Assembly (NCBI GenBank): GCA_963750165.1
Contig: CAVVPN010000004.1
Location: 1,088,001-1,152,000, forward strand
Source: an uncultured Gemmataceae bacterium
Lineage (GTDB): Bacteria > Planctomycetota > Planctomycetia > Gemmatales > Gemmataceae
Length of the DNA: 64,000 nucleotides
Direction: 5' to 3'
Part shown: positions 10,772 to 64,000 of the stretch, one piece after another
How the letters are laid out: each line of letters begins with the position of its first letter
Position numbering within the stretch: position 1 is the stretch's first letter
Translations under genes and position numbers: made by a program
The notes under the pieces: model-generated
What the model was told of the DNA's origin: nothing
Databases searched by the model: none
The model's input: only the letters and a program-made list of their open reading frames with translations

Positions 10772-10861
10772 TCGGAACAACCAAGTTCACGTGCGGGCCG
10801 AGTGGGCTGGGCGTGTCCGATTAACCTCAGATGGCCCGTCACGTGCAACGGTTGGTTCGGC
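10772..10861 (-). other. attC-like recombination site
   Basis: Minus strand GCCGAAC-CAACCG-TTGCACGTGACGGGCC...GGCCCGCACGTGAAC-TTGGTT-GTTCCGA. Starts 5 nt after the PIN gene stop; bulged L-box arms. Confidence 0.8.
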
Positions 10862-10865
10862 CCGC

Positions 10866-11246
10866 CTACCGGATGTAGGGCTGGCCCGTCACGAGGCCGG
10901 GCACGATCCGGTAGTGCTTGTCGTTGAACGTACACAACTCTGCCGAAAGACCGACGGTGATGGCCGCGATCAGGGCGTCCAGCAACCCGAGTCCGTGCGA
11001 CAGGTGGAAGGCTGTAAAGTCGGCCAGTGCCCGCTGGCAGTCCGCGGTCGTCGGCCAGACGATGGGCAGGGGGGCGGTCAGTCGCAACACATCGCGAACC
11101 TGCCCGGCGTTCTGCGCCCCCTGGATCAACTCCATGACGACCAGCCCGGGCACAGTCGGCAGTTCAGTGAGGCCTGCGAACCAAGCCAGGGCGGCGGCGT
11201 GCCCGCGTTACACGTCGATCAGTACGTCGGTGTCGAGGACGAGCAT
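10866..11246 (-). pseudogene. PIN/VapC toxin with in-frame TAA at codon 13
   Basis: MLVLDTDVLIDV*RGHAAA...VMELIQG...LLDALIAA...TFNDKHY; stop at 11208-11210. Confidence 0.8.
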
Positions 11247-11251
11247 CGCGG

Positions 11252-11509
11252 TTAGGCTCCGCGGCGCTGCGCCCGATCGCGGAGGCGGCGGCCTTCCGCT
11301 TGGGCATCGGTAATGTCCGGTCGGCTGCCGACCAAGCCCTCGGCCCGCCAGAAGGCGACGAGGTCCGCACCGCTCCGAACCGCGGCCACGGCCGGCCGGG
11401 CGGACGTAAGTAGGCGAACGGCATAATCGGGCAGCGACAACCCCAGGCGCGATGCCTCGTCGGTCAGGGCCTCGGCCAGATCATCGGGTAGTTCAACGGT
11501 CTGAGGCAT
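11252..11509 (-). CDS. Putative antitoxin (RHH-like) of the PIN TA pair
   Basis: 85 aa, MPQTVELPDDLAEALTDEASRLGLSLPDYA; immediately upstream of the PIN gene. Confidence 0.7.
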   Translation of the reverse strand: MPQTVELPDDLAEALTDEASRLGLSLPDYAVRLLTSARPAVAAVRSGADLVAFWRAEGLVGSRPDITDAQAEGRRLRDRAQRRGA

Positions 11510-11610
11510 GGTTCGTCTCCCACGGCAGCGATTTTAACACCCCGATTTTCTATGGTCCCACGAACCGCCCCGGGCGTCAACAGCTCATCAGGACGGCCCT
11601 ACTTCAGAAG

Positions 11611-11699
11611 GCCGAACGCCCCAGTTCAGGTGCGGGCCACTCGACTCAATGTGTCCGTGTAGACTCAGTTGGCCCGTCACCTGCAGCCGCTGGTTCGGC
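11611..11699 (-). other. attC-like recombination site
   Basis: + strand GCCGAAC...CAGGTGCGGGCCA...TGGCCCGTCACCTG...GTTCGGC, 89 bp; downstream of the DUF262 gene. Confidence 0.85.
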
Positions 11700-11741
11700 T
11701 CGGTATTTCTATCCGTTGGTGCTGGACCTCGCAATCTCCAT

Positions 11742-13424
11742 TTACCGCCTCAACAGGCGTGTTGACAGTGCGTCGCGTAGTGCCGCCTCGCGGGCGGCGA
11801 GGAAAGCGTCGAGGTTATTCTCCTCCATCGCTTTGATTCCATCAGCCGTGATAAAGTGCGCCTTAAACGTCAAGGCAAGCGACATCTTGTCACCCCCGTG
11901 GGAATCCAGGCAGACCTGAAGGAACTCTGCGGGCAACTTGTCGCTCTTTTTGCGGTTAGTGTCCTTGTGAATCACGGATAGACCAAAGATGTTCTTGGCC
12001 GCCGCGGGAAACTTCGACACCGGGAAGACGTGATCTACCTCGCAATCCTCCAGCTTGACCGATTGACCGTTGATGAAATCGGTCGCCCCATTAAGAACGA
12101 CCAGATTGTAGAATGCCTTAGCGAGTGCGGATGTGCGGGAGGCTTTTCGAATATCCGTAATGACGCTGGCAATGTCCGCCGTCATATAGGGAACAGCGGA
12201 ATCGTTTCCGAACCACGCGGCAACCGCCTTGTAATCAGCGTACGAGTGTGTCTCTACCGAACGAGCATAACGGCCGGTGAACACAGCTGTCCAGTACCAG
12301 CTGTCAATCTTGTCGTAAAACGCCTTCGCTCCGCCGAGAGATTGAGCCCTTTGAATGAGCGCTGCTAATGGGACGGCAATGCTCGTGTAAGGAAACAGGG
12401 GGATACGTTGTTTCTTCGCACGGAGTCGGACAGCGCCGTAGACGTCTCGCATCCGTGTAGCAGCTTTCTCAAGGTATTCGCGAGCGGCTTCCCACCGGTT
12501 GTAGAACTCTGCCTGGGCTTTGTTTTGATCAGCGCGCTGATCGACGAGCCCGAGAAGGTTCTTGTTTTTCGGCTCCCTCTCGTTGGACAGCGCCATTACG
12601 CGCAGCAGAGCCTCGGGTTCAACGATTTGCGGCTCGCCGCTCTTGATTTTTTGCTTTAGGTCGTTTAGCCGTATGCCGATCGGGTAGTACCGAGCTACTG
12701 CCAAATCGAAGATATCAAGGCGCGTACCGAGTCGGTTGATCCTCTCGAATGTACTCACGATCTCGTCGTCTGGCGTGTCGTGGGGCAGGGTGACGACGGC
12801 CACCTCATAATCAAGGATGCTCTGAAGAAGCCTGTTTAACTCGTCCCGTATGCCTGGCTCAATGGTGCTGCCGCGCGAATTCAGGTACTCGGTGAGCGTC
12901 TCCGGCGAGCGAAAAGACGCCATGCTCGGATAGCTCTGGACGTTGATGCCGGTATTTTGGACTAGAAACTCGAGGAATTTTTCCAAGAGCTTCTTCTCCT
13001 CCTTCGGGTGCAGCTTCCGGACGAGACCCTCGATCTTCTGAACTCCGACTACCTCTTGGCATCCAATCAAGTTGAGAAAGAACCGCGTAGGCAGAACCTC
13101 GTCTCGGAGCGAGACAGAAGGCTCGAAGAAAGCGTAAAAAAGGGAGGTAAGCCGCTGCTGCCCATCGAGGACGTAGCTAATGGTCACGTGGGTCTTCGGG
13201 TCAGCTTTTACCCCGGGAATCAAACGAGGAGCAAAGCGCAGGTTCGATGTCGGACTTTCAAGAAGCAGAAGAGTGCCAATGAAGTACCGATTGACGACCG
13301 AATTCAGGAGCTCCTCTACCTGTTTGAGAGTCCACACGAAATCACGTTGAAAGTCGGGAATGATTAGTTTCCCCGTACGAACGTCGTCAAGGAGTGACGG
13401 CAGTTTCCGTTCTTGGACTTGCAT
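11742..13424 (-). CDS. DUF262 (GmrSD/ParB-like NTPase) plus C-terminal HNH-like domain; putative modification-dependent restriction or defence nuclease
   Basis: IPDFQRDFVW, LDGQQRLT and FERIN motifs; C-terminal EVDHVFP..N..TNRKKSDK; lower GC than flanks. Confidence 0.85.
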   Translation of the reverse strand: MQVQERKLPSLLDDVRTGKLIIPDFQRDFVWTLKQVEELLNSVVNRYFIGTLLLLESPTSNLRFAPRLIPGVKADPKTHVTISYVLDGQQRLTSLFYAFFEPSVSLRDEVLPTRFFLNLIGCQEVVGVQKIEGLVRKLHPKEEKKLLEKFLEFLVQNTGINVQSYPSMASFRSPETLTEYLNSRGSTIEPGIRDELNRLLQSILDYEVAVVTLPHDTPDDEIVSTFERINRLGTRLDIFDLAVARYYPIGIRLNDLKQKIKSGEPQIVEPEALLRVMALSNEREPKNKNLLGLVDQRADQNKAQAEFYNRWEAAREYLEKAATRMRDVYGAVRLRAKKQRIPLFPYTSIAVPLAALIQRAQSLGGAKAFYDKIDSWYWTAVFTGRYARSVETHSYADYKAVAAWFGNDSAVPYMTADIASVITDIRKASRTSALAKAFYNLVVLNGATDFINGQSVKLEDCEVDHVFPVSKFPAAAKNIFGLSVIHKDTNRKKSDKLPAEFLQVCLDSHGGDKMSLALTFKAHFITADGIKAMEENNLDAFLAAREAALRDALSTRLLRR

Positions 13425-13454
13425 AGGGGTCTCCGATGGGGCGGCTACGATGGG

Positions 13455-13541
13455 TCACAGTGAACTTCTACCGCGGGGAATGAAGTCGAACCTCGTGTCC
13501 ATCAGGATGCGATACAGTTCCTTCAATTCGGCTCTCGCCAT
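13455..13541 (-). pseudogene. Truncated 28-aa cassette ORF remnant
   Basis: GGAGGG RBS right after the GTTCGGC site; MARAELKELYRILMDTRFDFIPRGRSSL*. Confidence 0.4.
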
Positions 13542-13557
13542 GGCATACCCTCCGCGC

Positions 13558-13621
13558 CGCCGAACTGGTGATTCGTCCTCTGACGCTTGCCGCTTTGCTT
13601 CTCAGCGTTAATAGTTCGGCG
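13558..13621 (-). other. Short atypical att-like site
   Basis: CGCCGAACT...AGTTCGGCG (perfect 9-bp outer IR) abutting the stop of the 13622-13993 ORF; weak inner stem. Confidence 0.55.
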
Positions 13622-13993
13622 CTACTGACTCTCATCTGACACTTCAATGATCCGCGATCCCATCCCACGCGCCTCGGCGATTGCGGACTGAAAGTACTGG
13701 ACAGCAAATGCCGGATCGGGGATTGAATAGACGTGATCAGGCAGCCATTCAAGGTCTCGTTTGGCAGCTGAAAAGCTGTAGCGACCGAAGCGTTGCAGCT
13801 GATAACCAATGCGATTGTCGGACAATCGACGTTTCACGATTCGACGCGATTCACTGAAGCGATGAACGACAGCGCGGATAGTCGGTGGCTGGCCGACATA
13901 GTGGGCGTCGGGATTGACGATGTCCCGATGCTCAAACCCCGCATGTCGTTCGGAGTCCGTCAAATCCTCGGGGAACCAGTTCGAAGCCGCCAT
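13622..13993 (-). CDS. Hypothetical cassette protein (123 aa)
   Basis: Strong RBS GAAGGAGG before ATG; bounded by att-like sites; no recognised domain. Confidence 0.65.
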   Translation of the reverse strand: MAASNWFPEDLTDSERHAGFEHRDIVNPDAHYVGQPPTIRAVVHRFSESRRIVKRRLSDNRIGYQLQRFGRYSFSAAKRDLEWLPDHVYSIPDPAFAVQYFQSAIAEARGMGSRIIEVSDESQ

Positions 13994-14024
13994 GATATCC
14001 TCCTTCAAGTGCTCCGCACCCTTT

Positions 14025-14143
14025 GCCGAACATGGTATTATTGCCAACTGCGCGGCCAATGCAACATTGCTTCGTCGGTTCTCGGCGTCTTTTTCGACGG
14101 ATTCCAACCTCGCGATGTTGCGTTATCCGCGCAGTTGTCAATA
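14025..14143 (-). other. Long hairpin ending in GTTCGGC (partial or atypical att-like site)
   Basis: TATTGCCAACTGCGCGG..AATGCAACATTGC / GCGATGTTGCGTT..CCGCGCAGTTGTCAATA stem; GCCGAAC at 14025; no matching partner core box on the other side. Confidence 0.5.
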
Positions 14144-14173
14144 GCGTGCGCTGCACACGCTATCAAGACGACA

Positions 14174-14220
14174 TTTTCGGGGCGGTACGCTGCCCTCAGG
14201 CGAGCGTACCGCCCCGAAAA
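14174..14220. repeat. REP-like hairpin
   Basis: TTTTCGGGGCGGTACGCT/AGCGTACCGCCCCGAAAA. Confidence 0.6.
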
Positions 14221-14355
14221 TCGGATTGCAAGGGAAAAAGCAAAAGGTCGTTTTCTACACTTGAAATCCGTTGTGTCTTACAGCGAAGCCCGCTCGCGCG
14301 TCCGAACAAGGATTAGGGCACGCCGCGCGCTCTATCAAGGATCGGTTTTCGGATT

Positions 14356-14405
14356 TTACGCTCCCAACAGGCGCCGGCGAAGCACGGCGCCTGTTGGGAG
14401 CGTAA
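14356..14405. repeat. REP-like hairpin
   Basis: TTACGCTCCCAACAGGCGCCG/CGGCGCCTGTTGGGAGCGTAA. Confidence 0.65.
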
Positions 14406-14753
14406 CCGCCCCGATTCCGAAATGCAAGAAGCGCGCGCCGGAAATCCGAAAAGCCACCGGCCGTGTCTCAAGAACCGCCTGAGAAAGCTACAATCCCGGG
14501 AGGTAATGTGCCTGAACAGCTTGTTAGTCGGCTTTCAAAAGCCGAGTATTACGGCCCAAAGCCGAGTAGCAAGGCCAAGTGGGAGGGTAAGGCCGTCGCC
14601 TTGCTATGTCAAGCGTCTAACTGACCGAGCAAATTCGTCACGCACTGCGTGACGAATCCGACGAGGCAGGTCCGGAGCGTCGGCGCCAAAATAATGTTTG
14701 GGCCTGACGGCGAATGGGGTATCCTGGACTCACCCCAACCCCGGAGGCGCGAC

Positions 14754-15059
14754 ATGGCACAGGTCCCCGCGTTGCAGGCGGCCTATGACGAGGTGGACAT
14801 CACCCCACCGCTGGGCGGTTCCATGCCCGGCTACTTCCGCGACCGATTGGCCACCGGCACGCTGGATCCGCTCAAGGCCAAGGCGCTCTACCTGCGGCGC
14901 GATACCGAGAGTGTTGCCCTGGTCGCCTGCGACCTGATCGGCGTGGGCGCCCCCATCGTCCGGCGCATCCGCACGGCCGTCGCCGGCCTGACCAAAAGCC
15001 CGCCGCGCCACGTCTGGGCGAAGACTGCGGCGGGGCTGCTCGAGGAACTGGCGGGCTGA
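14754..15059 (+). pseudogene. Neutral/alkaline ceramidase-like protein, internally deleted
   Basis: VDITPPLGGSMPGYFRDR..GTLDPLKAKAL..LVACDLIG N-terminus. It breaks off where the H-T-H motif is expected and joins a C-terminal-like tail AKTAAGLLEELAG*. Confidence 0.7.
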
Positions 15060-15266
15060 GCCGATGCCGTGCGTTGCCAGCCGTTGCAAGGGCGTCAAAC
15101 CTGGCTCGCGTGGAGTTGGCGGCCTTGGCGGTCTTGCTCGAACCGGCAGCTTCAGGCATTGGCCGGCACGGCGCGGCAGGTCCGCCTGGCGCGGCGCGGC
15201 ACGTGACACGCCTGGCGGCCTTGGCGTTCTTGCTCATTATTCATCATTCCAGTGGAGGTGTCTGCC

Positions 15267-15659
15267 ATGATCCAGGCCGGCGGCAAGCAGCGCATGGTCG
15301 TCGTGCTGACGGCCCTCGTCGGCGTGACCGCCACCGCGGTCGCCTACCTCGGCACACGGCAGGACCAGCAACCGGCCGCGCCGCCGTCCGCGTCCGCCCC
15401 GGCCGGCGCCGCGTTCACCAGCGAAGTGATCGTGATGCCGCACGACGAGCCGGAATGGCCGCCGGGGCCTCACCAGCGCACCTTCCTCGCTAACTGCACG
15501 ATCTGCCACTCGACGCGCCTGGTGATGACGCAACCGTCGTTCCCGCGCGCGAAGTGGCAGGAGATCGTTCATAAGATGGTCAAGACCTACGGCGCCCCGA
15601 TCACCCACGAATCCGAACAGCAGATCGTCGAGTATCTGGTGACGGTTCGCGGCCAGTGA
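15267..15659 (+). CDS. sorB: Monohaem cytochrome c, SorB-like
   Basis: GGAGG RBS; N-terminal TM/signal; ANCTICHS..MTQP...WQEIVHKMVKTYGAPI. Confidence 0.8.
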   Translation: MIQAGGKQRMVVVLTALVGVTATAVAYLGTRQDQQPAAPPSASAPAGAAFTSEVIVMPHDEPEWPPGPHQRTFLANCTICHSTRLVMTQPSFPRAKWQEIVHKMVKTYGAPITHESEQQIVEYLVTVRGQ

Positions 15660-15685
15660 CGGGCCGCGCCGCAGAAGGGAGCCGC

Positions 15686-18385
15686 ATGAGCGCTGACGCC
15701 GCCGTCCCCGCCGACCTGCCCGCGACCGAGCACGGCCTGATCCGCGCTCACGGCCTGGCCGCGCTGGCGATGGTCGTCTACTCCGCACTGCTCGGCCTGG
15801 CGGTCGCGCTCAAGTTCCACTGGCCGGACTTCCTGGGCGACACCGCCTGGCTGACGTGGGGCCGGCTGCGCTACGGCCACACCCAGGGCATCTTTTTCGG
15901 CTGGCTCGGCAACGCTTTCCTGGCGTTCTTCTATCACGCCGTGCCGCGCCTCGCCGGTCGTCCCGTCACCAGCCGTGGGCTGGGCTGGCTGCTGTTCGCC
16001 GTCTGGAACTTCGGCGTCGTCATCCCCGGCTGGGTGCTGGTGCAGATCGGCATCAGTCAGCCGCTGGAGTGGGCCGAGTTCCCCATCGTCACCGACGTGT
16101 TTGTCGTGTTCGCCTTCGTGCTGACGGCGCTGCAATTCGTGCTGCCGTTCTTCCGCCGCGGCATCGCGAACCTGTATGTCTCGGCCTGGTACATTCTCGG
16201 CGGCACCGTGTTCACGCTGTTCGCCTACCCGGTCGGCAACTTCATGCCGGAACTGGTGCCCGGGGCGCGCGGGGCGACCTACAGCGGTCTGTGGATCCAC
16301 GACGCCATCGGTCTGTATGTCACGCCGTTCGCCGTGGCCATTGCCTATTTCGTCATCCCCACGGTCACCGGCCGGCCCATCTACAGCCACTTCCTGTCGA
16401 TGCTGGCGTTCTGGATGCTGTTCTTCATCTACCCGCTCAACGGCACGCACCACTTCCTCTTTTCCTCCATTCCCATGGAGGCCCAAATTGGGGCCATCGT
16501 CGCCTCGGTGTACCTCGGCATGGACGTGGTGCTAAACGTCAGTAACCTGCTGCTGTCGCTGCGCGGCTCCGCGCCGGTAGTGGCCCGCGACGTGCCGCTG
16601 CGCTTCGTCTGGGTGGGCATCGTTTCTTACCTGGTGGTGAGCTTGCAAGGTTCGCTGCAGGCGCTGATGCCGGTCAACCGCTTCGTCCACTTCACGGACT
16701 GGGTCATCGGCCACTCCCATCTGGCGATGATCGGCTTCGCCTCGTTCCTGGCGGTCGGCGGGCTGCTACACGCCTGGCAGCACACGGCCGGCCTGCGCTA
16801 CAACGCCCACGCCGCCAACTGGGCGTTCTGGCTGCTGGCGGTCGGGCTGGCCGCGATGGTCAGCGACCTGACGGCCGCGGGGCTGGTGCAGGGCCAGCTC
16901 TGGCAGTCCGAGGCGCCCTGGATCGATTCGGTCAGCGCCTCGCAGCCGTTCTGGGTTTCGCGGTCGCTGGCGGGACTGCTGGTGCTGGCTGGGTTCGGCG
17001 CCCTCTGCCTGACCGTGTTGACCGGCCCCGTCGGCGAGGTCTCAGAAGTCAGAGAACAGAAGTCAGAAGCCAGGAGTCAGGAGTCAGAGAGCGGTTCTCC
17101 GCTGACTTCTGACCGCTGTCCTCTGATCTCTGAAGCCGAGAGCCATCGCCGCGCCCTGCCCTGGTTGAAGAGCGCCTACGTACTGACCGGTGTGGCGGGC
17201 TTCGGCTGCTTCCTGTTCTCGTTCGTGGTGCTGGCCGTCTGGCCCAACCAGGCGCTGGAACAGGAGATGGACGCCAGCCGGCCGCCGGGCCTGCCGCCGC
17301 TGACCGACGCCGAGCTGCGCGGCCGCGCGATCTATGGCCGCGAGGGCTGCCTCAACTGTCATTCGCAACTGGTCCGGTCCACCACCGACGACGTGCGCCG
17401 CTTCGGCCTCGCGAGCCAGGCGTGGGAGACGGAGAAGGAGTTTCCGCAGTTGTGGGGCACGCGCCGCATCGGCCCCGACCTGGCGCGTGAGTCCGGCAAG
17501 CGGCCGCGTGACTGGCACCTGACCCATCTGTGGAACCCGCGCTGGGTCGTGCCCGAATCCAACATGCCGGCTCATCCGTGGCTCTTCGACAGCTCGCCGC
17601 TCCGGCCGACGCAGGAGGCGCTCGACCTGGTGGCTTACCTGGAGTCACTGGGCCGCGACGCGCGCCTGGCCGGCACGCTGGAACGCGGCCCCGGTCGGAA
17701 AATGGACCCGGCCGAGGAGGAGCGCATGGGCGTCTTCTGTGACTGCGCCATCCCGCGCACGGCCGGCCCGGCGGTGCTGCTCTCGACGGACCTGCCGCCC
17801 GCCGAGTTGCTGCGTTTCGAGCTGCGCGGGGCAGCCGTCTTCGCACGTCACTGCGGCGGTTGCCACGGATCGGGCGGCAAGGGCGACGGGCCCGCGGCGG
17901 TGAGCCTGCTGCCGGCGCCGCGCGACCTGACGCAAGCGCGTTTCTCGGACGCCGCGCTGAGCCGGGTCCTGTGGGGAGGGGCCCGCGGCTCGTCGATGCC
18001 CGGCTGGCATGAGTTACCCGTGAACGACCTGCGGGCGCTGGCGGCCCACGTCCGCACGCTGGAGGAACGGCCCCCACAGGCGGAGCGGGAGCCTGTGCTC
18101 TCGGCCGAGGAACGCGGTCAGGCCGAACTGTTGTACGCGACGAACTGCGTGACGTGTCACGGCCCGCGTGGACAGGGCGACGGCACCGCGGCAGGTGCCC
18201 TGGCCCCGCGACCGACCGACTTCGGCCAGGTGCGCCCGAGCCTGGCCTACGCCGAGCACGTGCTGGCAGAGGGCGTACCCGGGACCGCCATGCCACCGTG
18301 GCGGTCGCCGCCGGTCGCCGCCCAGCGCCGCCTGCTGGCGCGCTACGTCCGCACGCTGTACCAACCCGCACCCTCACCCCGCTAA
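15686..18385 (+). CDS. C-family (cbb3-like) haem-copper oxidase: CcoN-CcoO fusion with two extra cytochrome c domains
   Basis: WGRLRYGHT, WIHDAIG, YPLNGTHH and DWVIGHSH (six His ligands); CcoO REGCLNCHSQ..WGTRRIGPDLARE..SNMP; further CGGCH..SSMP and CVTCH..TAMP. Confidence 0.88.
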   Translation: MSADAAVPADLPATEHGLIRAHGLAALAMVVYSALLGLAVALKFHWPDFLGDTAWLTWGRLRYGHTQGIFFGWLGNAFLAFFYHAVPRLAGRPVTSRGLGWLLFAVWNFGVVIPGWVLVQIGISQPLEWAEFPIVTDVFVVFAFVLTALQFVLPFFRRGIANLYVSAWYILGGTVFTLFAYPVGNFMPELVPGARGATYSGLWIHDAIGLYVTPFAVAIAYFVIPTVTGRPIYSHFLSMLAFWMLFFIYPLNGTHHFLFSSIPMEAQIGAIVASVYLGMDVVLNVSNLLLSLRGSAPVVARDVPLRFVWVGIVSYLVVSLQGSLQALMPVNRFVHFTDWVIGHSHLAMIGFASFLAVGGLLHAWQHTAGLRYNAHAANWAFWLLAVGLAAMVSDLTAAGLVQGQLWQSEAPWIDSVSASQPFWVSRSLAGLLVLAGFGALCLTVLTGPVGEVSEVREQKSEARSQESESGSPLTSDRCPLISEAESHRRALPWLKSAYVLTGVAGFGCFLFSFVVLAVWPNQALEQEMDASRPPGLPPLTDAELRGRAIYGREGCLNCHSQLVRSTTDDVRRFGLASQAWETEKEFPQLWGTRRIGPDLARESGKRPRDWHLTHLWNPRWVVPESNMPAHPWLFDSSPLRPTQEALDLVAYLESLGRDARLAGTLERGPGRKMDPAEEERMGVFCDCAIPRTAGPAVLLSTDLPPAELLRFELRGAAVFARHCGGCHGSGGKGDGPAAVSLLPAPRDLTQARFSDAALSRVLWGGARGSSMPGWHELPVNDLRALAAHVRTLEERPPQAEREPVLSAEERGQAELLYATNCVTCHGPRGQGDGTAAGALAPRPTDFGQVRPSLAYAEHVLAEGVPGTAMPPWRSPPVAAQRRLLARYVRTLYQPAPSPR

Positions 18386-18399
18386 CCGGAGGACGCCTC

Positions 18400-18585
18400 A
18401 TGGCCGTCAACCTCATCGTGCTGGCCGTGACGCTGCTGATGGCCGCCTTCGTCGGCGTCTGGATCTTCTTCCCCCGGCTGCGTGCCTGGATGGAGATGCC
18501 GAAGTATCGTTTCCTGGAACAGCAGCGTCAGTTTCCGGACGTGCTTCGGGAGCGTCAGCCCGGAGAGAACGGGTCGTCTCAGTAG
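18400..18585 (+). CDS. Small membrane protein, CcoQ-like
   Basis: GGAGG RBS; one TM helix followed by MEMPKYRFLE; directly after the oxidase gene. Confidence 0.55.
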   Translation: MAVNLIVLAVTLLMAAFVGVWIFFPRLRAWMEMPKYRFLEQQRQFPDVLRERQPGENGSSQ

Positions 18586-18684
18586 CGTGTGGCGTTGGAA
18601 TGGAACCTGGGAAGCAGCAAGGGCCGGGCCTGATTGCATCAGGACCGGCCGCAGGTGATTGCTCGCTCGGAGCGAAGGATTGAG

Positions 18685-18756
18685 AGGCCCCTCCCGGAAT
18701 CGAACCGGGGTGAACGGATTTGCAATCCGCTGCCTAAGCCGCTCGGCCAAGGGGCC
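18685..18756 (-). tRNA. tRNA-Cys (GCA), CCA not encoded
   Basis: GGCCCCT..GCGGA-TTGCAAA-TCCGT..GGTTCGATTCC..AGGGGCC-T cloverleaf. Confidence 0.95.
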
Positions 18757-18973
18757 CGAAGGCGATGGTGTTGGTATCGGTCGAATCGAGCCGGCGACTT
18801 GATCGGTTTTTTCGACCTCCCCCTGGCGGCGACACCACCAAAGTTGGCCTCCTTTTTTTCAGACGATGAAGCATCCTTTACTTTTGGTTCACCTCAACTT
18901 TAAGGTGACGCGCTATCCTTATTGGATAGGGACACGGCAACCAAGTCGCCTTGTGGGTCTGCCCGATCCAACG

Positions 18974-19021
18974 GACGGAGGCCATTATGGAAGACCGGAC
19001 GGAGGCCATTATGGAAGACCG
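18974..19021 (+). repeat. Perfect 24-bp tandem duplication spanning RBS and ATG
   Basis: (GACGGAGGCCATTATGGAAGACCG)x2. Confidence 0.9.
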
Positions 19022-39866: not shown

Positions 39867-39930
39867 GGCAGCTCTCCCCGGATAGCGCGGAACGGCACCC
39901 CCTTGTGCGGGTAAAGGATACGGAAAACGC

Positions 39931-40047
39931 GGTCAGAGGTCAGAGGTCAGAGGTCAGAAGTCAGAAGTCAGAGGTCAGCGCAGTCGTTCTGTCGCTTGCG
40001 GCCTGTGCTCTGCCTGACCTCTGATCTCTGACTTCTGGCTTCTGGCT
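39931..40047. repeat. Heptamer (RGTCAGA)n/(TCTGRCY)n inverted tandem repeat
   Basis: GGTCAGAGGTCAGAGGTCAGAGGTCAGAAGTCAGAAGTCAGA...CTGACCTCTGATCTCTGACTTCTGG. Confidence 0.85.
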
Positions 40048-55607: not shown

Positions 55608-56300
55608 GAAGCACCTCCCACAACAGGTTTTGAAAGGGCGTCTCCCGAACGGGGAACCGGGCGCATACCCGTCCCCCTGCCGCTCTGAATCTGGAGGCGA
55701 GCGGCCCTGTCCGCGGCGGGAAGCCCAGCAGCCGGCCATGAGACATTTTTAACTTAATCCGCCTTTACGACATTTACTGAGATTGATATGTATATGTATG
55801 AGAAAGTAAAAAATCGCCCACGTTGTTTTCACTGACCATATCCCAAAATGGTCTGGTGGAATGGAGCAATGCTGGTTTCACACCAAACCAACCCCTTGAT
55901 GATCGGTCCAGCTATAAAGGAATGCATCATGCGTCACCCGAGCCCAGCCGGTTCGCTGCCACAGCCGTGAGAATTCTTTCCATCCGCTGTCGAGCCATTC
56001 TGCCGTAACACCCCTCAGATAATAACGTAATCGTCGTCTCTCCACGACGACCGCGGCTTGGTTCAGAACACCGGCTCGCGCACCGCTCATCGGGCGTCAC
56101 CGCCGATGGTTCCGCTTGGCCGTCCGCTGGTATCCCGTGGCAAACTCTCCGTGAAGGGCAAGGAGCGAAGCTCACGTCGGGCCGTCCTTCACCGAACCAT
56201 CAAACCTCCAACCACCGCGCTGGCGACGCGCGGAGGGGGATGGCGTTGCGCCGTCCAGGTCGAGTTGATTGAATCTCTCCAGGAACCAGCAGGCCCAACC

Positions 56301-57533
56301 ATGAAGACAACCCTTGCCCCTCCGGCGTTTCGCCCCGCACCTGCCCCGCGCCTCGCAATGGCGCACGGCGTTGCCGCCGGAGCCTCGAGGTCGCAACCCG
56401 CCCCAGACGGGGCGGACACGGCGCCCCGCCCGCGCACCCGGTGGAAGCCACCCTGACCACCTTGTGGCAAGCGATCCTTCAGGTCCCGGCGGTCGGCCCC
56501 CGGGATGACTTTTTCGCCCTGGGGGGCGATTCGATGGCCGCCGTTGAGTTGTTTCATGAAATCCACAAGGTATTCGGCGAGCGCTTCCCCTTGGAGACGA
56601 TCTTCCAGGCATCGACGGTGGAGCAACTCGGCCGGTTGATCGGCCGGCACACCCCGACTCCGGCCCAGCGCCTGGTGCCGATCCAACCGGCCGGCACGCG
56701 GCCGCCCTTCTTCTGCGTCCACGGCGTGGGCGGCGAGGTCGTCAACCTGCACCGGTTGGCCCACCACCTGGGGGGCGACCGCCCCTTCATCGCCATCCAG
56801 TCGCTGGCCCTGCGCACGGGCACGCCGCCGGGACGAATCGAGGACATCGCCGCCGCCTACCTGCAAGAGCTGCTGGCTTTCCGGCCGACCGGCCCGTACT
56901 ACCTCGGCGGCTACTCCTTCGGCGCCACGGTCGCCTACGAGATGGCGCAGCAGCTCCGCCGGGACGGCCGGGACGTGGCCTGCGTGGCCCTCCTCGACCG
57001 TCGGCGCCGGCAGGTCTCCGCGGACAACGCCTGGGACCTGCCGGTGCTGGCCCGCTGTCTGGGGAACGTGCCGCAGTGGCTCCGGGACGACGGGCACCGC
57101 CTGCGGCCCGGCAGCCTGTCCGTGCGCGTGGGGCGGCGGGCGAGCGGCCTGGCGCGGCGCTGGCTGTCGTGGGCGTGGCCCGGCCGCCGCGCCGACGCGG
57201 CGCCGGACGTGCCGGACTGCTTCGACCTGGACCGCCTGTCGGACGACTCCCTGGCTCTGCTGCAGGCGCACTACCCGGGCGCTGCGGGAGTACGAGCCGC
57301 AGCCCTACCCGGGCCGCGTGTTCCTGTTCCGGGCGCGCACGCAGCCGCTGCTGCCGGGCGACTGGCACCGGCTCGACATGGGCTGGGGCGGCCTGGCGGG
57401 AGGCGGGCTGTGCGTCGTCCCCGTCCCGGGCAACCACGCCACCCTCCTCGAAGAGCCGCACGTCGCCGTGCTGGCACGCAAGCTCCGGGCGGCCCTCGCT
57501 TCCGCCCCCAGCGGGTCGCGCACCGCGAATTGA
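56301..57533 (+). CDS. Stand-alone carrier protein (PCP)-thioesterase didomain; apparent frameshifts at ~56437 and ~57275
   Basis: [33 protein letters not shown]-terminal LFRA..GW..VPGNH in another frame. Confidence 0.8.
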
Positions 57534-57670
57534 TCAAATTTGCACATTTCTTCCCATTATTATTCCTTTGGCCGCCGGTTCTTCCGAGTGCCGGCGGCCG
57601 GGCTGGCGCCGCACGCCGGCACCGACGGGACCGCGGCGCGGGCGAGGTCGCCTTGCGTGATCTGGCAACT

Positions 57671-57679
57671 TGTTATAAT
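57671..57679 (+). promoter_or_regulatory. Extended -10 element upstream of guaB
   Basis: TGTTATAAT ending 36 nt before the ATG. Confidence 0.45.
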
Positions 57680-57715
57680 GGGCAAGAAAGCCTCTCGTCA
57701 GGAGACTTCCCCATC

Positions 57716-59200
57716 ATGCAAGACCGCATCGCGTATCAGGGCATCACGTTTGACGACGTGCTGCTGGAGCCCGCCTACAGCGACGTGTTGCCCCGGGACG
57801 CGGACGTCCGCACGCTGCTGACGCGCACCATCCGCCTGAACCTCCCCATCGTTTCCTCGCCGATGGACACCGTCACCGAGAGCGACCTGGCCATCGCCCT
57901 GGCGCAGGAGGGCGGCATCGGCATCATCCACAAGAACATGTCGATCGCCCACCAGACGCGCGAGGTCGATAAGGCCAAGCGCAGCGAGAACGGCATCATC
58001 ACCGACCCGGTGACGCTGCCGCCCGACGAGACGGTCGGCACCGCCAAGCGGCTCATGGACACGCACAAGGTGAGCGGCGTGCCCATCACGGTCAACGGCT
58101 ATCTGCGCGGCATCCTCACGCGCCGCGACCTGCGCTTCCTGCGCGACAACAACCAGAAAATCGCCGAGGTCATGACCCGCGACAACCTGGTAACCGCCGC
58201 GGAGAATACGACGCTGGAAGCGGCTGAGCGGATTTTGACGGAAAATAAAGTGGAGAAACTCTTGCTGGTGGACGAAAAATATAAACTGAAGGGCCTGATC
58301 ACCATCAAGGACATCGACAAGTTGACGAACTTCCCCGCTGCGTGCAAGGACGAGCGCGGCCGGCTGCGCGTTGGGGCGGCTCTGGGCATCCACGACTACG
58401 AGCGTGCCGAGTCGCTCATCAAGGCGGGTGTCGATGTGCTGGTGGTCGATTCGGCGCACGGCCACTCGAAAAACGTTGTCGAGACGGTGCGCAAGCTCAA
58501 GCAGCAGCACGACATCGCGGTCATCGCCGGCAACATCGCCACCAGCGAGGGCGCCCGCGCCCTGGTGGACGCCGGCGCGGACGGCGTGAAGGCTGGTCTT
58601 GGCCCCGGGTCCATTTGCACAACGCGGATCGTTTCGGGGGTTGGCGTGCCGCAGATCACCGCCGTGTACCAGGCGGTCCAGGGCATCAAGGGCAGCGGCG
58701 TGCCGGTCATCGCCGACGGCGGCATCCGCTACTCGGGCGATCTGGTGAAGGCGCTGGCGGCAGGGGCGCACAGTGTCATGCTTGGCGGCCTGCTGGCGGG
58801 CCTGGCGGAGAGCCCCGGGCAGACGATCATTTACAAGGGACGCAGTTTCAAGACGTATCGCGGCATGGGCTCCATCGGGGCCATGGTGGCCGGGTCGAGC
58901 GATCGCTACCGACAGCCGGACGCGCCGCCGGGCAGCGGTAAACTGGTGCCGGAGGGGGTCGAGGGTCGCGTACCCTACAAGGGCAATCTGGCTCCGTTCG
59001 TCTACCAGCTGGTCGGTGGGCTGCGGGCCGGCATGGGCTACTGTGGCACGAGGAATATCGAGGAATTGCGCACGCGTTCCCGCTTCATCCTGGTGAGCGG
59101 CGCGTCGGTGCAGGAGAGCCACCCACATGACATCGCCATTACGCAGGAAGCGCCGAACTACAGTTCACGGAACGAGCTGGCGAGCACGGACGGCGGCTAG
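57716..59200 (+). CDS. guaB: IMP dehydrogenase
   Basis: [18 protein letters not shown] pair, [32 protein letters not shown] and ESHPHD motifs. Confidence 0.97.
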
Positions 59201-60158
59201 CCTCCTGGTTCTGGGCGGCCTGCTCGGCGGCCGTGCCGCCGCGCAGCAGGTCGCGCTGCCTGTGCGACCGGTTACGCCGGCCGCCCTGGCCGACAACCTG
59301 CCCGCTCCGCCCGCGAACATCACTAACCTGCCGCCGCTGCCCAACCTCGCCCCGCCCACGCCGCCGGTGCCGCCCGTACCCAACGGCCGCCGGCAGCCCC
59401 CGGCGCACCTGCCGCCGCCCGCGCCGGCCGCGCCTCCAAGCACGACCCTGCACTTCAGCCGTGACCCGGTGGGGCCGACTCCGCTGGGGCAGTACCTGGC
59501 CCCGTTCACACCGCCCGAGGGGCCGATGAACCAGGCGCTGCTGGCCCTGGGTACGGTCCAGGTCAGCCCGGCGTACACCGGGCCGGTGGCCATGCCGACG
59601 ACGCAACCGCCCAACTTCGGCCTGGGTCTGGCGCCGCTGTCGCCGCGGCAGCGCCGGGTGCTGGAGGAGAATCTGGATTACAGTATCCAGCTGGAAATCC
59701 CGAGCATCTACAAGTTGACGCGCCTGGAGTCCGAGGCCGCGCTGAAGGAGCGTATGCGGAACGAATTTCGGCTCCGCGGCGACCGCATCGTCTTCCCGGA
59801 GGAGCAGCCCCTGTCGCGCGCGCCGTACCAGGGCCGGCAGTGGCCGCCGTCGATCGAGATCGTCGAGCCGGCCTACGTCTGCCACCACCGCCTCTACTTC
59901 GAGCAGATCAACAGCGAACGCCTGGGTTGGTCGGTGGGATTTTTGCAGCCGGCGGTCAGCGCCCTGCACTTCTACTGGGATGCGTTCCTGCTGCCGTACC
60001 ATCTCGCCACGCTGCCGGGCAAGGAGTTTGATTGCAGTGCCGGCAAGTGCTTCCCGGGCGACCCGGCGCCGCTGGCCCTGTATCCGCCGATGCTGAGCGT
60101 GACCGGCGTGCTCGCCGAGACAGCCGTGCTCACGACTGGGTTCTTTGTCTTCCCGTAG
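59127..60158 (+). CDS. Pro-rich secreted hypothetical protein (start uncertain)
   Basis: Signal-like segment; C-terminal [30 protein letters not shown]. Confidence 0.65.
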
Positions 60159-60444
60159 GCACCGGGCATTGGAAGCGGCGGCGGGAAGAAGTGTCCTCCG
60201 GATGCTGCGTTCGTAGTACCGCCTTCAGAGAGCGTCCAGCTTTGCAAGTGTTGGAAAATGATGGACGGCGCGGCGGCGGCGCCATTCCAATTCGGCTGCC
60301 GTTCCTTTGGTTCTCATACCCTTATTCTACTCGCCGCGTCGCATGTGATGTCTTTAGAAAAGTCGGACGCAGTAGATGCCCCGGCATATATTACCCCGGC
60401 AGGAAAGATCTTCATAAGCACGACGAGCCAAAGACGAGATTCGG

Positions 60445-61305
60445 CTACTGGTACTTCGGGCCTGTATGACCTTCTTTCGTGCGGCGGTAATACTCACGCA
60501 GCGGGAGACTTACCAAGCCGGACCTACGGCACGCATCGAGAACCTTCGCCCGCCCGCCGTCGGACGCACTGAGAATGTAACTGTTTGCAGGCAACTCGGG
60601 AAATCGGTCGGCAAATCCTGGCATGAGGTCTTTCAGTTCCGAATACCGAGGATCGTCCTTGCGAACAAATCCTCGGGGCACGGTATTCGGACTGATCCAA
60701 ACCCACTCAGGATTCTGAGATTGATCCGCCCCGAGGCGGGCGCGATATGTTGGATAGCCGTGGGCCCACGTATCCGGAGGTTCAAATTGGACGCCGAGCT
60801 GCACGGACAAACCGGCTTTCACGTTTTCGATGTCGGCGACGGCTTCCAAGACGTATTCATCATCGACGCGGATTTGGAGCATGTCGAGGTAGTCAGCGAA
60901 CGAACTCGCAATAGGAAGCTCCTCGTCGCATTCGATATCCGCAAGGGTGATCGCCGGAGCCTGTTGGTTCTTCCGATAATCCAGACAAAGGTGCCAATGC
61001 CCGTCGCCATCGAAGGGGATCAGTCCCTCAAGCGGGAAACCGACGTACGCCTGCGCTTCGTCCCAATCGAACCTGGTGAGAGATGGGAAAAACGGACCGA
61101 TGCCAGCGATCGTGTTATGGACATTCTCCGGTAGCTCATACCGAAGGTAGCCCCCATTCTGTTTCCGCAGCAGGGTCAGGTACTCGCTTGGAAGCCTGCA
61201 GCCGAGCGCCTTTTCAGCTGATGCAACGGCTTCGTCCGTCAAAGAAGGCTGAAGGTACGGCAAATAAGCCGGAACGCGCCAAATGGTGTCTGCGGTTGCG
61301 CCCAC
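60445..61305 (-). CDS. SMI1/KNR4 (SUKH) family protein, cassette-borne
   Basis: EKALGCRLPSEYLTLLRKQNGG..GDGHWHLCLDYR..IASSFADYL; GGAG RBS just after the att site. Confidence 0.85.
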   Translation of the reverse strand: MGATADTIWRVPAYLPYLQPSLTDEAVASAEKALGCRLPSEYLTLLRKQNGGYLRYELPENVHNTIAGIGPFFPSLTRFDWDEAQAYVGFPLEGLIPFDGDGHWHLCLDYRKNQQAPAITLADIECDEELPIASSFADYLDMLQIRVDDEYVLEAVADIENVKAGLSVQLGVQFEPPDTWAHGYPTYRARLGADQSQNPEWVWISPNTVPRGFVRKDDPRYSELKDLMPGFADRFPELPANSYILSASDGGRAKVLDACRRSGLVSLPLREYYRRTKEGHTGPKYQ

Positions 61306-61323
61306 GAGTAACGCTCCGTTGGC

Positions 61324-61419
61324 ATCTAACGGGCAAGCTCAGCGGCTGCGGGGGCCGGAGAGCCGTTGAACTCGGAAAGCCGCAATGCCCCCGCAGTCCG
61401 CTGAAGCGGGTGGTTCGAG
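61324..61419 (-). other. attC-like site (canonical GTTAGAT R' box)
   Basis: Minus strand CTCGAAC-CACCCG-CTTCAGCGGACTGCGGGGGC...GCCCCCGCAGCCGCTGAGC-TTGCCC-GTTAGAT. Confidence 0.85.
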
Positions 61420-61463
61420 CCCCCACTACCTGACACCGAAACCCACTGACCGCAGGACTGGCC

Positions 61464-61561
61464 CCACTACCTTTGACCACGCCCGAGCAGCGGGACTCGG
61501 GGACCTGTGAGGTCCCGAACGCTTACGTCCCCCGCCGGTCAGAGGCGCTATCAGGTTCGGA
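61464..61561 (-). other. Degenerate attC-like site
   Basis: TCCGAAC..GACCGGCGGGGG..TAA..TCCCGCTGC aligns loosely with 62101-62196; the upstream ORF stops inside it. Confidence 0.5.
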
Positions 61562-62083
61562 CAGACCACCGGACTCCGCTAGAGCTTCCGCCTTATCATA
61601 GCAGAACGCCTGCTTGATGAGTGCGGCCGATACCCGCGGCCCGGCCTCGATCGACTCCAGCGCCGCGTCGATCTCTGAGAAGACACAGTCGTAATCCCCA
61701 TCCGGCGGCAACTCACTGAGCCGGAACCGAGGGCCGTCGAGAACCAACCCGCCGTTTTCGCCATACGGGACCCACCAGGCGTCGCCGGCACCGAACTCGC
61801 GGACCCGCCTGCCGCCCGAGTAACGCACGCCGATACGGACGCAGCAACTATTATCGTAGAATAGGGCAACGGCCTGCCCAGTCACGGCCGACACCCGCCG
61901 TGCGACGCGCTCAACAGCCGGCTGGTCGAACAGATCGTGCCGGCCAGCTACACGGTGCACACCGTATATCCCGCGGGCCAAACGCACCAACCGCAACCGC
62001 AGCCTGGAGGAGAGCAAGCCGAAGGCACGGCGGGCGGTGCGCTCGTCGGAGCGGAACACCACCCCCTCGTACATCTCGCTCAT
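61523..62083 (-). CDS. Hypothetical cassette protein
   Basis: GGAGG RBS after GTTTGAA; ORF reads into the next site (SEPDSASDRRGT*). Confidence 0.7.
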   Translation of the reverse strand: MSEMYEGVVFRSDERTARRAFGLLSSRLRLRLVRLARGIYGVHRVAGRHDLFDQPAVERVARRVSAVTGQAVALFYDNSCCVRIGVRYSGGRRVREFGAGDAWWVPYGENGGLVLDGPRFRLSELPPDGDYDCVFSEIDAALESIEAGPRVSAALIKQAFCYDKAEALAESGGLSEPDSASDRRGT

Positions 62084-62100
62084 CCTGTGCGCCTCCGGTA

Positions 62101-62196
62101 TTCAAACGACGAAGCTCAGCAGCGGCGGGGGCTGCAGAGCCGTAAACCTCAGAAAGCCTACATGCCCCCGCCGTCTGCTGTAGCGCCTGGTTCGGC
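62101..62196 (-). other. attC-like site
   Basis: Minus strand GCCGAAC-CAGGCG-CTACAGCAGACGGCGGGGGC...GCCCCCGCCGCTGCTGAGC-TTCGTC-GTTTGAA. Confidence 0.85.
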
Positions 62197-62808
62197 GTCC
62201 CACGGGACCGGCCGAAACCACGACGCGCCGATAAGCCGGCAGTGGGTGACCGTGTCGTCGCCGCTCACCTCGAGCTTATCCAAAAAACAGCGAGCCGGTG
62301 GGAACCGCTTTACTTCCCAGAGCTTGGAGATGCACAACAATCGCTCACGATTCGCCGCTCGAGTCCGGGATAGTTCGAGGCGACCAATCGCCGTCGAAAA
62401 CTGCCGATAAAAGTCTGCGGGATCCGGCGTCCATAGGCCGGCAATTTCCTCCATTTCAATGGTCACGAACCTCCCTGGTGCGTCGGCGACTGCGGTACGC
62501 AAAAGCTCGGCGTACCCGTCCAGCGGTCCCTCGGCCCTGAACATCCGATTGAGTGTTGGAAGGGCGCGGGCTAATTGCTCAAAGGCGAGGGCCTTTCGAG
62601 TAATTGGCGCTGTGGTGGTCACCTGTTGGCCTTCTACCTCAAAGACCTGGGTCCGCATGTCTGCCGGCCGAAACATCGCAAGCCAGACGAGGGGAACGCA
62701 GTAGGCATCGAAAGCCACTGTCTGCACCCTGCTGTCGTAGTTGGGATCCCCGATGTTTGGGTAGATGGTTTCCACATCTGAGACGCAAAGGTAGGAGCGA
62801 TTCGCCAT
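62158..62808 (-). CDS. Hypothetical cassette protein (MANRSYL...)
   Basis: GAGGAG RBS; ORF ends within the att site (AEPGATADGGGM*). Confidence 0.75.
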   Translation of the reverse strand: MANRSYLCVSDVETIYPNIGDPNYDSRVQTVAFDAYCVPLVWLAMFRPADMRTQVFEVEGQQVTTTAPITRKALAFEQLARALPTLNRMFRAEGPLDGYAELLRTAVADAPGRFVTIEMEEIAGLWTPDPADFYRQFSTAIGRLELSRTRAANRERLLCISKLWEVKRFPPARCFLDKLEVSGDDTVTHCRLIGASWFRPVPWDAEPGATADGGGM

Positions 62809-62834
62809 CGGAATAGTCTCCTCGGCGTCCTGTA

Positions 62835-62923
62835 GCCGAACAACTCAGTTCACGTGCGGGCCACTCGACTCAATGCTCAGCTGCAACCTCAGTTGGCCCG
62901 TCACGTGCAACCGCTGGTTCGGG
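62835..62923 (-). other. attC-like site, close relative of 11611-11699
   Basis: Same 89-bp length; shares GTGCGGGCCACTCGACTCAATG and CTCAGTTGGCCCGTCAC. Confidence 0.85.
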
Positions 62924-62979
62924 TCGGTTTTCTCTCGACTTCGACCCTTTTGCCTCGGCCTGCTCTCGCGCTCACCCTC

Positions 62980-63531
62980 TTACTCGTTCTTTCCGAAAAT
63001 CGTGACACCGATGTTGTGCAAGCCAGCGTATTTGATTGCCAGGCCGAGGAGGATATACTCGTCCTTTTGGTAACCAGCAGCAAAAGCATCCTGATGCAGC
63101 AACATCGTCGGTTGGTTCTCTTGGCCGGACTGTGTTGCTTCTATCGCTGCTTTTTTTACACCCTTCGCAAATTCAGGAAGGTAGTGTTCAACAGTTGCAA
63201 CCACCGTATCCACTCGCCTCTTTTTTTCGGCAGCGGTAGGTGATTCCTGCTCGACACCTGGCACCAGCTTCATTACTCCGTCTTCTTGGAAGTTGAACTC
63301 GCCACGCCGGACTCGATCCAAGGCCCGGTTGATCTCGTCTTCGCGGCCCCGGTAGGACTGCAGAAACGTACTCACAGGAAAAGACGGGTCAACATCATAA
63401 AAGCCGACGACCGGGCCTGGCGGTGCTTTATCAAGGAGAAGCAACAGTTCGGCCTGACAATACTTTTCGTCAGCACAACGAGTGTACAAGGCTGCACTTT
63501 TTCCTTCGCCTTGCCGCATGATAAATGCCAT
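62980..63531 (-). CDS. Hypothetical cassette protein
   Basis: AAGGAG RBS; low GC; lies between two att sites. Confidence 0.75.
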   Translation of the reverse strand: MAFIMRQGEGKSAALYTRCADEKYCQAELLLLLDKAPPGPVVGFYDVDPSFPVSTFLQSYRGREDEINRALDRVRRGEFNFQEDGVMKLVPGVEQESPTAAEKKRRVDTVVATVEHYLPEFAKGVKKAAIEATQSGQENQPTMLLHQDAFAAGYQKDEYILLGLAIKYAGLHNIGVTIFGKNE

Positions 63532-63621
63532 TGTGTGGTCTCCTTTCCCGGACCAAGCTCAGCCTGGAGGATGCCTTTAGTATTCCACGCTCCGCGACCG
63601 ACGGCTACCGCTCTACGCGTG

Positions 63622-63722
63622 CCCGAACGACCAAGCTCAGCAGCAGCCTCACGCGGACCAAACCGCCACAACTCGCTCGACCGCCTATCGCGTGGGCTGT
63701 CTGCTGCAGCGACTGGTTCGGC
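63622..63722 (-). other. attC-like site
   Basis: Minus strand GCCGAAC-CAGTCG-CTGCAGCAGACAGCCCACGCG...CGCGTGAGGCTGCTGCTGAGC-TTGGTC-GTTCGGG. Confidence 0.85.
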
Positions 63723-63734
63723 CTGTTGCCTATT

Positions 63735-64000
63735 CTACTTGCAGGCCGACACGTCTTGGTTGACGACCTCGCGAACCCGCGCCGCCTCCTCTTCATGCTT
63801 TACAACGACCCTCAATATCTCTAATGGCGCCCAATCCTGTGCCAAGGCCGGGCGAAGCGCAACCGCGAAGTCCTCCATCGACAGCGGGCCGAAGCCGGTC
63901 GCGAGTGCCGCGAGGTTGACCGTCCGGCGCGCAGCTCCCGCGCCTTGGACAAAGCCGTGAGGATCGTGTCTCTGACAAGCTCTATCGAGGAGTCGTAAGA
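63735..64000 (-). CDS. 3' part of a probable macro-domain protein (cassette; runs off window; apparent frameshift at ~63925)
   Basis: Manual translation YDSSIELVRDTILTALSKAREL..TVNLAALATGFGPLS..VSACK*, resembling the macro-domain 'S/T-V-A-x-P-A-L-x-T-G' motif. Confidence 0.55.
   Translation of the reverse strand, partial: LRLLDRACQRHDPHGFVQGAGAARRTVNLAALATGFGPLSMEDFAVALRPALAQDWAPLEILRVVVKHEEEAARVREVVNQDVSACK

Follow-up and report, generated by a model that had tools for sequence, protein, structure and literature searches.

Can gene cassettes that lie far from any integrase gene still be captured and expressed? This question is raised by a 64,000-nt stretch of DNA from an uncultured Gemmataceae bacterium (G000:C4:1088001-1152000, i.e., part of contig CAVVPN010000004.1; hereafter "the window"), which carries two arrays of hairpins resembling the attC sites of integrons. 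Searches gave no tyrosine recombinase match in the window; the nearest such gene, XerC-like judging by its sequence, is 7 kb away on the left side. A preliminary description of the window proposed a dispersed, integrase-less cassette system with a core of its own (GTTCGGC), seeded at several chromosomal spots by an integrase acting in trans. Here, we show the right array to be the distal part of a complete chromosomal integron, which is an already known kind of system. The left array is, by definition, an attC cluster without an integron integrase (CALIN), but one with its own stacked modules that look like a cassette promoter (Pc) joined to an attI site; these modules, at 14031-14620, had been overlooked, and they are the new part. 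We argue that the genome probably combines one chromosomal integron with several integrase-less capture platforms that draw on its cassette pool. Coordinates without a prefix are window positions; those with a contig prefix refer to the same genome.

attC sites and the integron beyond the window

The six hairpins lie on the + strand, at 10772-10861 (90 bp) and 11611-11699 (89 bp) in the left array, and at 61324-61419 (96 bp), 62101-62196 (96 bp), 62835-62923 (89 bp), and 63622-63722 (101 bp) in the right array; the starts and the size range of 89-101 bp agree with the preliminary description. Because the open reading frames (ORFs) sit on the minus strand, the + strand is the recombined bottom strand. 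Folded as single-stranded DNA, the + strands are more stable than shuffled sequences (z-scores of -2.85 to -4.10), with 0/200 shuffles folding equally well for five hairpins and 3/200 for that at 63622. A covariance model built from 40 sites, the six window sites included, scores these six at 68-84 bits on the + strand and ≤22 bits on the - strand (e.g., 76 and 17 bits for 10772, the last site of the left array, and 84 and 19 bits for 11611). The order of elements is AAC, a 6-nt spacer, L', a variable center, L'', a 5-nt spacer, and GTT; AAC, GTT, and the spacing are invariant in 40/40 aligned sites, a set picked by a scan that requires AAC and GTT. On the + strand, two bulged bases have T-N6-C spacing, and the second is C in 85/97 sites. 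Sites with T-N6-C spacing are good excision substrates for several integron integrases (PMC3053210). Double-sided changes occur in 11/15 stem pairs, and the covariation score is 0.431 vs 0.109, with 0/500 shuffles reaching it, although nine pairs were required by the picking scan and the relatedness of the sites inflates the shuffle control. Sites 11611 and 62835, both 89 bp and 82% identical over 97 nt, differ by the C-G/G-C swap that had been reported for them. Each window site is 3' of the stop codon of a minus-strand ORF, as had also been noted; genome-wide, this is true of 70/97 sites, vs 27/97 in the opposite orientation. Folding, covariation, and model scores thus agree that the six hairpins are attC sites, and we predict that IntI recombines them as folded single-stranded DNA. 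Two further statements of the preliminary description held in part. A ribosome-binding site (RBS) was said to follow most sites; an RBS with a start codon within ~35 nt is clear at 2/6, and 10772 is followed by a hairpin resembling repetitive extragenic palindromic (REP) elements. The additional degenerate hairpins amount, in an unfiltered covariance-model scan, to weak extras at 13559-13620 (E 1.5) and 61514-61561 (E 0.86).

Profile searches beyond the window reveal 56 attC sites, all on one strand, in an array of ~50 kb (C4:1149323-1198015). The site at 61324 is the last of the 56, and 52 further sites lie between the window and the main attI. The widest gap in the array is 3741 bp and contains repeated elements of the size of an insertion sequence (IS). 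The main attI has its crossover at C4:1198338 and consists of four GTT-bearing direct repeats with a 20-bp period. Next to it, and divergent from the array, is a complete intI gene encoding 441 aa (C4:1198586-1199911, + strand; L001:1189-2514). The right array thus has an attached intI, 46 kb beyond the window, and is neither a CALIN nor integrase-less; an ordinary intI-attI just past the window edge was the very outcome that the preliminary description had named as fatal to its proposal. The integrase with an I2 insertion that it suggested looking for is the product of this gene. IntI scores 465 bits against TIGR02249 (cut-off, 265); its I2-type, integron-specific insertion aligns with that of IntI1 and is not in the genome's XerD-like protein. 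Residues R237, K262, H368, R371, and Y403 are invariant, and H394 nearly so, among 76 aligned sequences, and the top PDB match is the integron integrase 2A3V (E 1e-84). This is the one complete IntI in the genome, although the assembly is 93% complete, so another could be missing. Pc activity and an inducible intI are predicted for the main integron.

The cassettes of the main array bear the trace of circles. The core at the start of a cassette matches that cassette's own R'' at 176/220 positions, whereas shuffles match at 133 ± 4.7 (maximum, 151 in 20,000 shuffles), and the match is exact at 19/44 junctions vs 3.1 expected. By comparison, the two cores of a single site match at only 135/230 positions. 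This test used 44/55 junctions; the other 11 had gaps >1.1 kb or unparsed cores. The match of each cassette start to its own R'' is therefore a trace of circles joined at G/TT. In 44/53 cases, the R' cores of the main array begin with GTTC. This core is not special to the genome, as had been supposed: the attC model matches 54/60 genomes of the host family, which makes GTTCG-type attC sites a family trait. An attC model for the Planctomycetes has been published (PMC8352920), and the GTTCG core may already be visible in the supplementary models of Ghaly et al. 2021. The integrase-less system with a novel core, as first headlined, is thus ordinary.

Several other observations concern the main array. 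At C4:1189739-1190758, it contains a second attI with the promoter region and the 5' part of intI, which is 99.5% identical to the first over 961 bp, has one repeat unit fewer, is followed by another first cassette, and is cut at a REP-like palindrome; this is either an artefact of the assembly or a true duplication. In the first cassette, the inverse core of the attC (C4:1197918-1198013) is mutated and has no AAC, and that cassette should therefore be locked in place. Finally, an IS110-family element (NF033542, 285 bits) occurs at C4:1179846-1181370, C4:1186334-1187857, and C3:2408264-2409788, in 3/3 cases at the identical position within the L' box of an attC. It resembles the IS1111-attC group (PMC11187229) but differs by a long non-coding region 5' of the transposase.

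Orphan heads and shared cassettes

The left array is part of an insert of ~4.6 kb (10665-15233), bounded by a 10-bp direct repeat (+ strand) that lies within a REP-like palindrome. The left copy (10655-10664) is in a REP-like palindrome after a molybdopterin oxidoreductase gene, and the right copy (15234-15243) is just 5' of a cytochrome c gene; the 10-mer has six copies in the genome, including these two. The oxidoreductase and cytochrome c genes are neighbors in 14/14 relative loci examined, representing 14 of 18 genomes with a match. Because it is inserted into this conserved gene pair, the island is not an ancestral locus. Within it, no gene for a transposase was noticed. In the minus-strand direction, the island consists of an internally deleted host-gene copy (14755-15059, + strand; 91-93% identical to the two ends of a gene on C11), heads 1, 2, and 3, a first cassette encoding 123 aa of no family (13622-13993, - strand), a degenerate junction of short length, and two further cassettes, the first with a GmrSD domain and the second with a PIN gene. 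The degenerate junction (13559-13620; z-score, -3.1) has an R''-like core at one end and an attI-like GAAT-N5-G/TT at the other. With two full attC sites and no match to IntI up to 1.5 kb from its head, the left array is without intI, as the preliminary description had it; the nearest intI copy is truncated and ~87 kb away.

The three heads are stacked on the minus strand. Head 1 (14517-14620) has the promoter-like pair TTGACA-N17-TACCCT, two direct repeats ~20 bp apart, and an L-box-like heptamer followed by N5 and G/TT at 14517, a layout that resembles the main attI. Head 2 (14307-14516; 210 bp) has TTGCAT-N17-TACGCT, a hairpin, a palindrome, and CCCTAAT-N4-G/TT at 14307. Head 3 (14031-14306; 276 bp, non-coding) ends in TAAT-N5-G/TT at 14031, has no promoter-pattern match, and is 81% similar to a stretch on C12. 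Hence, a promoter-like pair is present in two of the three. At intI loci of relatives, a simple site points away from intI in 16/20 cases, with TAAT-N4/5-G/TT in 11; these sites were picked by eye from a pattern list, and some of the loci share a genome. Heads 2 and 3 fit the relatives' TAAT-N4-6-GTT, and head 1 has TAAC. By sequence, the heads look like Pc-attI, and we predict that a cognate IntI binds and recombines them.

Head 2 belongs to a family of modules of ~210 bp, 14 loci of which keep the 3' end. An attC is present within 3.2 kb at 9/14, six of the nine having been discovered by looking near attC. Among eight head loci found independently of attC, three have one within that distance, vs 0.7% expected. 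The family has an L-box heptamer in common with attI1 (as read from a plasmid record), and 12/13 members retain a -35/-10-like pair whose spacer is 17 nt, a pattern defined post hoc. An independent metagenome contig has the same head and, behind it, a single cassette in which the start core agrees with the R''; no intI lies upstream. Searched against 200 family genomes, the head DNA gave only short 3'-end matches in four genomes, plus one match within a coding region; the exact head pattern occurs in 3/251 family genomes and at three loci among all species genomes. The full head module is thus narrowly distributed in the genomes searched. A match between heads and first-cassette cores at eight heads (35/40 positions) was not used, because most of these cores had been chosen by that match. 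Four near-identical heads, at C12:63806 (within C12:63800-64100) and three places in C3:2668954-2678264, were counted as one locus; the 3' end of a host gene has been copied along with them, and REP-like repeats form the borders. Such copying with host DNA would be a second route by which heads spread.

Run genome-wide, as the preliminary description suggested, the covariance model scored 150 candidates and retained 97 sites at E ≤ 0.1. There are 30 attC clusters outside the main array, which bears out the claim of cassettes at many chromosomal spots; most are single sites (19/29 in one count), and the same scatter is seen in single-contig relatives. One short attC, at C11:1459952-1460012, measures 61 bp and has TAAC/GTTA cores, in contrast to most sites, which are 89-101 bp long. 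The attI motif is located 5' of 11/30 dispersed clusters, compared with 2.6% of random positions; as local controls, it is found at 4/30 on the opposite strand (p 0.036) and at 2/30 downstream (p 0.005). Ahead of the left array, and of at least 10 more dispersed clusters, there is a simple site of the attI type, in most cases together with a promoter-like pair. The PIN cassette of the window is 97% identical to C11:415676-416515, which lies behind another orphan head among different neighbors, and the identity begins and stops at G/TT junctions. A second cassette is common to C12 and C3 in like manner.

Origin and activity of the platforms

How might such platforms work? In the reading that we consider probable, IntI from the main locus would excise cassettes as circles by attC x attC recombination, the circles would be inserted at orphan attI sites by attI x attC recombination, and the module's own promoter would transcribe them. 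The orphan heads would derive from whole integron platforms minus intI, and they would then have moved on, here as a 4.6-kb island and elsewhere as modules stacked at each other's G/TT. The integrase in trans of the preliminary description thus survives as the best explanation for the dispersed clusters, where the platforms would be active through an IntI encoded elsewhere, and fails for the right array, which has its own intI.

Comparison with relatives gives good support to the view that the heads probably stem from whole platforms that lost intI. In the single-contig genomes G094 and G053, intI fragments are present at 6/19 intI-less cluster regions, and head sequences are common to intI-bearing and intI-less loci. 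Relatives have several intI copies per genome (three in one genome). In the host genome itself, one head retains an RBS, an ATG, and ~16 codons with a weak resemblance to the start of intI. In several relatives (G094, at C1:29310-33093, 2055747-2058611, and 3788008-3789854, and also L009, L010, L011, L019, and L069), the attI and cassettes come after the 3' end of intI and are codirectional with it, not divergent.

It is possible, though on balance doubtful, that the promoter-attI module is itself mobile. In this case, IntI would excise the module, alone or with cassettes, at an upstream GTT and reinsert it at other attI or secondary sites, multiplying the platforms. This idea is based on four head-to-head junctions that fall exactly at the preceding G/TT (14517, 14307, C11:455430, and C12:1301579) and on a GTT core 194-219 nt upstream in 8/13 head-family members, where ~12% would be expected for each. 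The idea is weakened by the possibility that these cores were inherited and did not arise independently, by intI deletion as an explanation for the heads of relatives, and by the outer borders of the island, which are not G/TT. If true, it would make the integron a network of docking sites over the chromosome rather than a single locus.

A number of observations weigh against active platforms. The margin of the attI motif over its opposite-strand control is modest, and the strict motif is missing at 19/30 dispersed clusters, even a loose version at 15/30. The promoter pattern is found in 18/22 heads vs 0.5 expected, but it was drawn from the heads themselves, and two of the 18 matches are repeat units of the main attI; a stricter scan for sigma-70 promoters gave 0 sites at 13900-14700. 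There is no downstream attC at 5/14 head loci with an intact 3' end. A possible intI relic was found at only 1/23 head positions tested, and it is weak (12 aa, E 46). The searched genomes include no other member of the host genus, and so offer no comparison of cassette order. The shared cassettes could have moved before intI was lost. Lastly, it is mostly the cognate integrase that recognizes an attI (PMC4792948), and in the part upstream of its simple site, the most frequent head family differs from the main attI; some heads may therefore be dead relics of a lost integrase.

Extended to all the dispersed clusters, that last point becomes an alternative in its own right, though an unlikely one: complete integrons lost intI, leaving frozen relics whose Pc-attI heads go unused by the surviving IntI. 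The intI fragments and multiple intI copies of relatives, and the intI-like start kept by one head, fit this, as do the degraded attC sites and the broken PIN gene in dispersed clusters. Yet two cassettes are 97% identical between intI-less clusters, with exact G/TT borders and different neighbors, while the divergence between the heads in front of the PIN-cassette pair is visibly greater (mean column identity in the family, 57%). Moreover, the left island interrupts a gene pair that is conserved, and so was not an ancestral locus. A still less probable possibility is that IntI dropped cassettes at random secondary (attG) sites with the consensus GWT, the "heads" being chance or non-coding cassettes. 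The attG route has been shown experimentally (10.1101/2022.09.11.507474), and insertion of this kind may well explain the clusters without a strict attI motif, most clusters being single sites. For the left array it is disfavored by the head family: a conserved 210-bp module, not a bare GWT, is located at the putative target, and the outer borders of the island are the 10-bp direct repeat. Nor does GWT alone account for the family-type attI simple site that the left array has in common with 10 other clusters, mostly within a conserved 200-bp module.

A new system, integrase-independent or using something other than IntI and having its own GTTCGGC core, hardly comes into consideration. The one feature in its favor is that the strict RYYYAAC/GTTRRRY consensus, a descriptive one, is nearly absent from the main array (1/53 R' and 0/55 R'', with a few R' cores mis-parsed). 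The AAC triplet is a conserved signature, as has been said of attI and secondary sites, and the AAC/GTT ends, the 6- and 5-nt spacers, and the T-N6-C bulges are all standard; relatives carry like sites beside intI. The complete IntI at the head of the same contiguous array and the cassette-circle test refute such a system. What these comparisons leave as probable is a single integron that shares its cassettes with several orphan platforms.

A double-domain integrase, other window features, and known systems

The N-terminus of IntI is duplicated in tandem: residues 6-94 are repeated at 99-187 with 46% identity, in two PF13495 stretches. In a search with the doubled region itself as the query, all 120 homologues among the matches listed, which are the top of a ranked list, have both units. 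One is the genome's own truncated copy; the 119 other clusters with a double-domain IntI have 59-72% identity. The relatives G008 and G012 also have a double-domain IntI, and a search of viral contigs gave no relative of this N-terminus. A single-sequence fold was poor (predicted local distance difference test score [pLDDT], 51); the alignment-based fold used instead predicts two confident four-helix units (block pLDDT, 81-98). The double-domain IntI thus represents a sizeable subfamily, and a literature search whose coverage leaves out most subscription journals found no description of it. Our guess is that the extra SAM-like domain binds the 20-bp attI repeats; it may help this IntI family to read diverse attI arrays.

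The PIN-domain (VapC-like) gene of the left array (10866-11246, - strand) has an in-frame stop and matches PF01850 with E 1e-4, its 23.2 bits being slightly below the 23.6 cut-off; the C11 copy is an unbroken 381-nt ORF. In the same toxin-antitoxin-type cassette, an 85-aa ORF without a Pfam match (11252-11509, - strand) is, by position only, the probable antitoxin. The 560-aa product of the next gene (11742-13424, - strand) has a GmrSD N-terminal domain (DUF262; PF03235, 99.6 bits) and matches PADLOC HEC-05 over its full length (E 6e-23), making it a candidate defense nuclease. The REP-like long hairpin after the last attC is located at 10695-10754, and 10680-10760 folds with a z-score of -9.8. 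In the right array, an SMI1/KNR4 gene (60445-61305, - strand) is the most distal main-array cassette, with no attC past it in the covariance-model scan. The remaining cassette ORFs, also on the - strand, encode 186 aa (61523-62083; no family), 216 aa (62158-62808; the stop codon is within attC), and 183 aa (62980-63531; no family), and the last (63735-64000) runs off the window end.

Elsewhere in the window, Rfam finds only a tRNA gene (RF00005; 18685-18756, - strand), and no family for the hairpins or heads. The molybdopterin oxidoreductase gene (9500-10632) is split over two frames near 10510, due to either a frameshift or a sequencing error. A 919-aa open frame at 56441-59200 has PP-binding, thioesterase, CBS, and IMP dehydrogenase domains, and may represent an unusual fusion or a pair of genes that share one frame. 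Short tandem repeats with a 7-bp period form two clusters, at 17028-17094 and 39919-39985.

These findings bear on how CALINs originate and whether they stay active. According to Cury et al. (PMC4889954), half of CALINs share a genome with an IntI, four origins can be listed for them, CALINs split from an integron are regarded as cut off from Pc, and attI, being unknown for most integrons, could not be searched. In IntegronFinder 2.0, the attI search is no longer run by default. A preprint on Xanthomonas describes CALINs as mobilizable in trans. Promoter-bearing, ORF-less cassettes have been reviewed, and those carry attC (PMC8876359); attI-like sites linked to intI have also been reported (PMC3146285). 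Our literature search, with most subscription journals and all supplements outside its coverage, found orphan Pc-attI heads at CALINs nowhere described. In the present genome, a family attI signature can be read from sites adjacent to intI, and it then heads a third of the intI-less clusters. Orphan cassette clusters thereby become candidate expressed capture platforms and concrete substrates for one integrase.

The main locus is similar to a sedentary chromosomal integron (PMC4889954) in its divergent complete IntI, the direct repeats of its attI, its 56 attC sites on a single strand with short ORFs between them, and its G/TT junctions; it differs in its GTTCG-type cores, the extra N-terminal SAM-like domain of IntI, and the second attI with 5' intI within the array. 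Its attC sites can be likened, by description only, to the Planctomycetes class, for which a phylum-specific covariance model exists (Ghaly et al. 2021, PMC8352920). The left array resembles CALINs and single attC sites lacking integron-integrases (SALINs) (PMC4889954; 10.1101/2022.09.11.507474) in having at least two attC sites, no nearby intI, and an intI elsewhere in the genome. Unlike them, it comes with an attI-type site and a promoter-like pair of its own, in a stack of three modules. The attG insertions of Loot et al. likewise place cassettes outside the integron with an integrase in trans, but at sites with only a GWT consensus, as opposed to the conserved attI-like modules seen here. 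The modules themselves can be compared with delta-attI-type cassettes (PMC12901181; PMC4792948), G/TT-bounded units with a downstream attI that are excised and inserted by IntI1. Reactions between two attI sites are known, although they are 3-4 orders less frequent (PMC4792948; PMC12901181). The delta-attI-type cassettes carry ORFs and belong to mobile integrons, whereas the modules described here are non-coding promoter-attI units on a chromosome.

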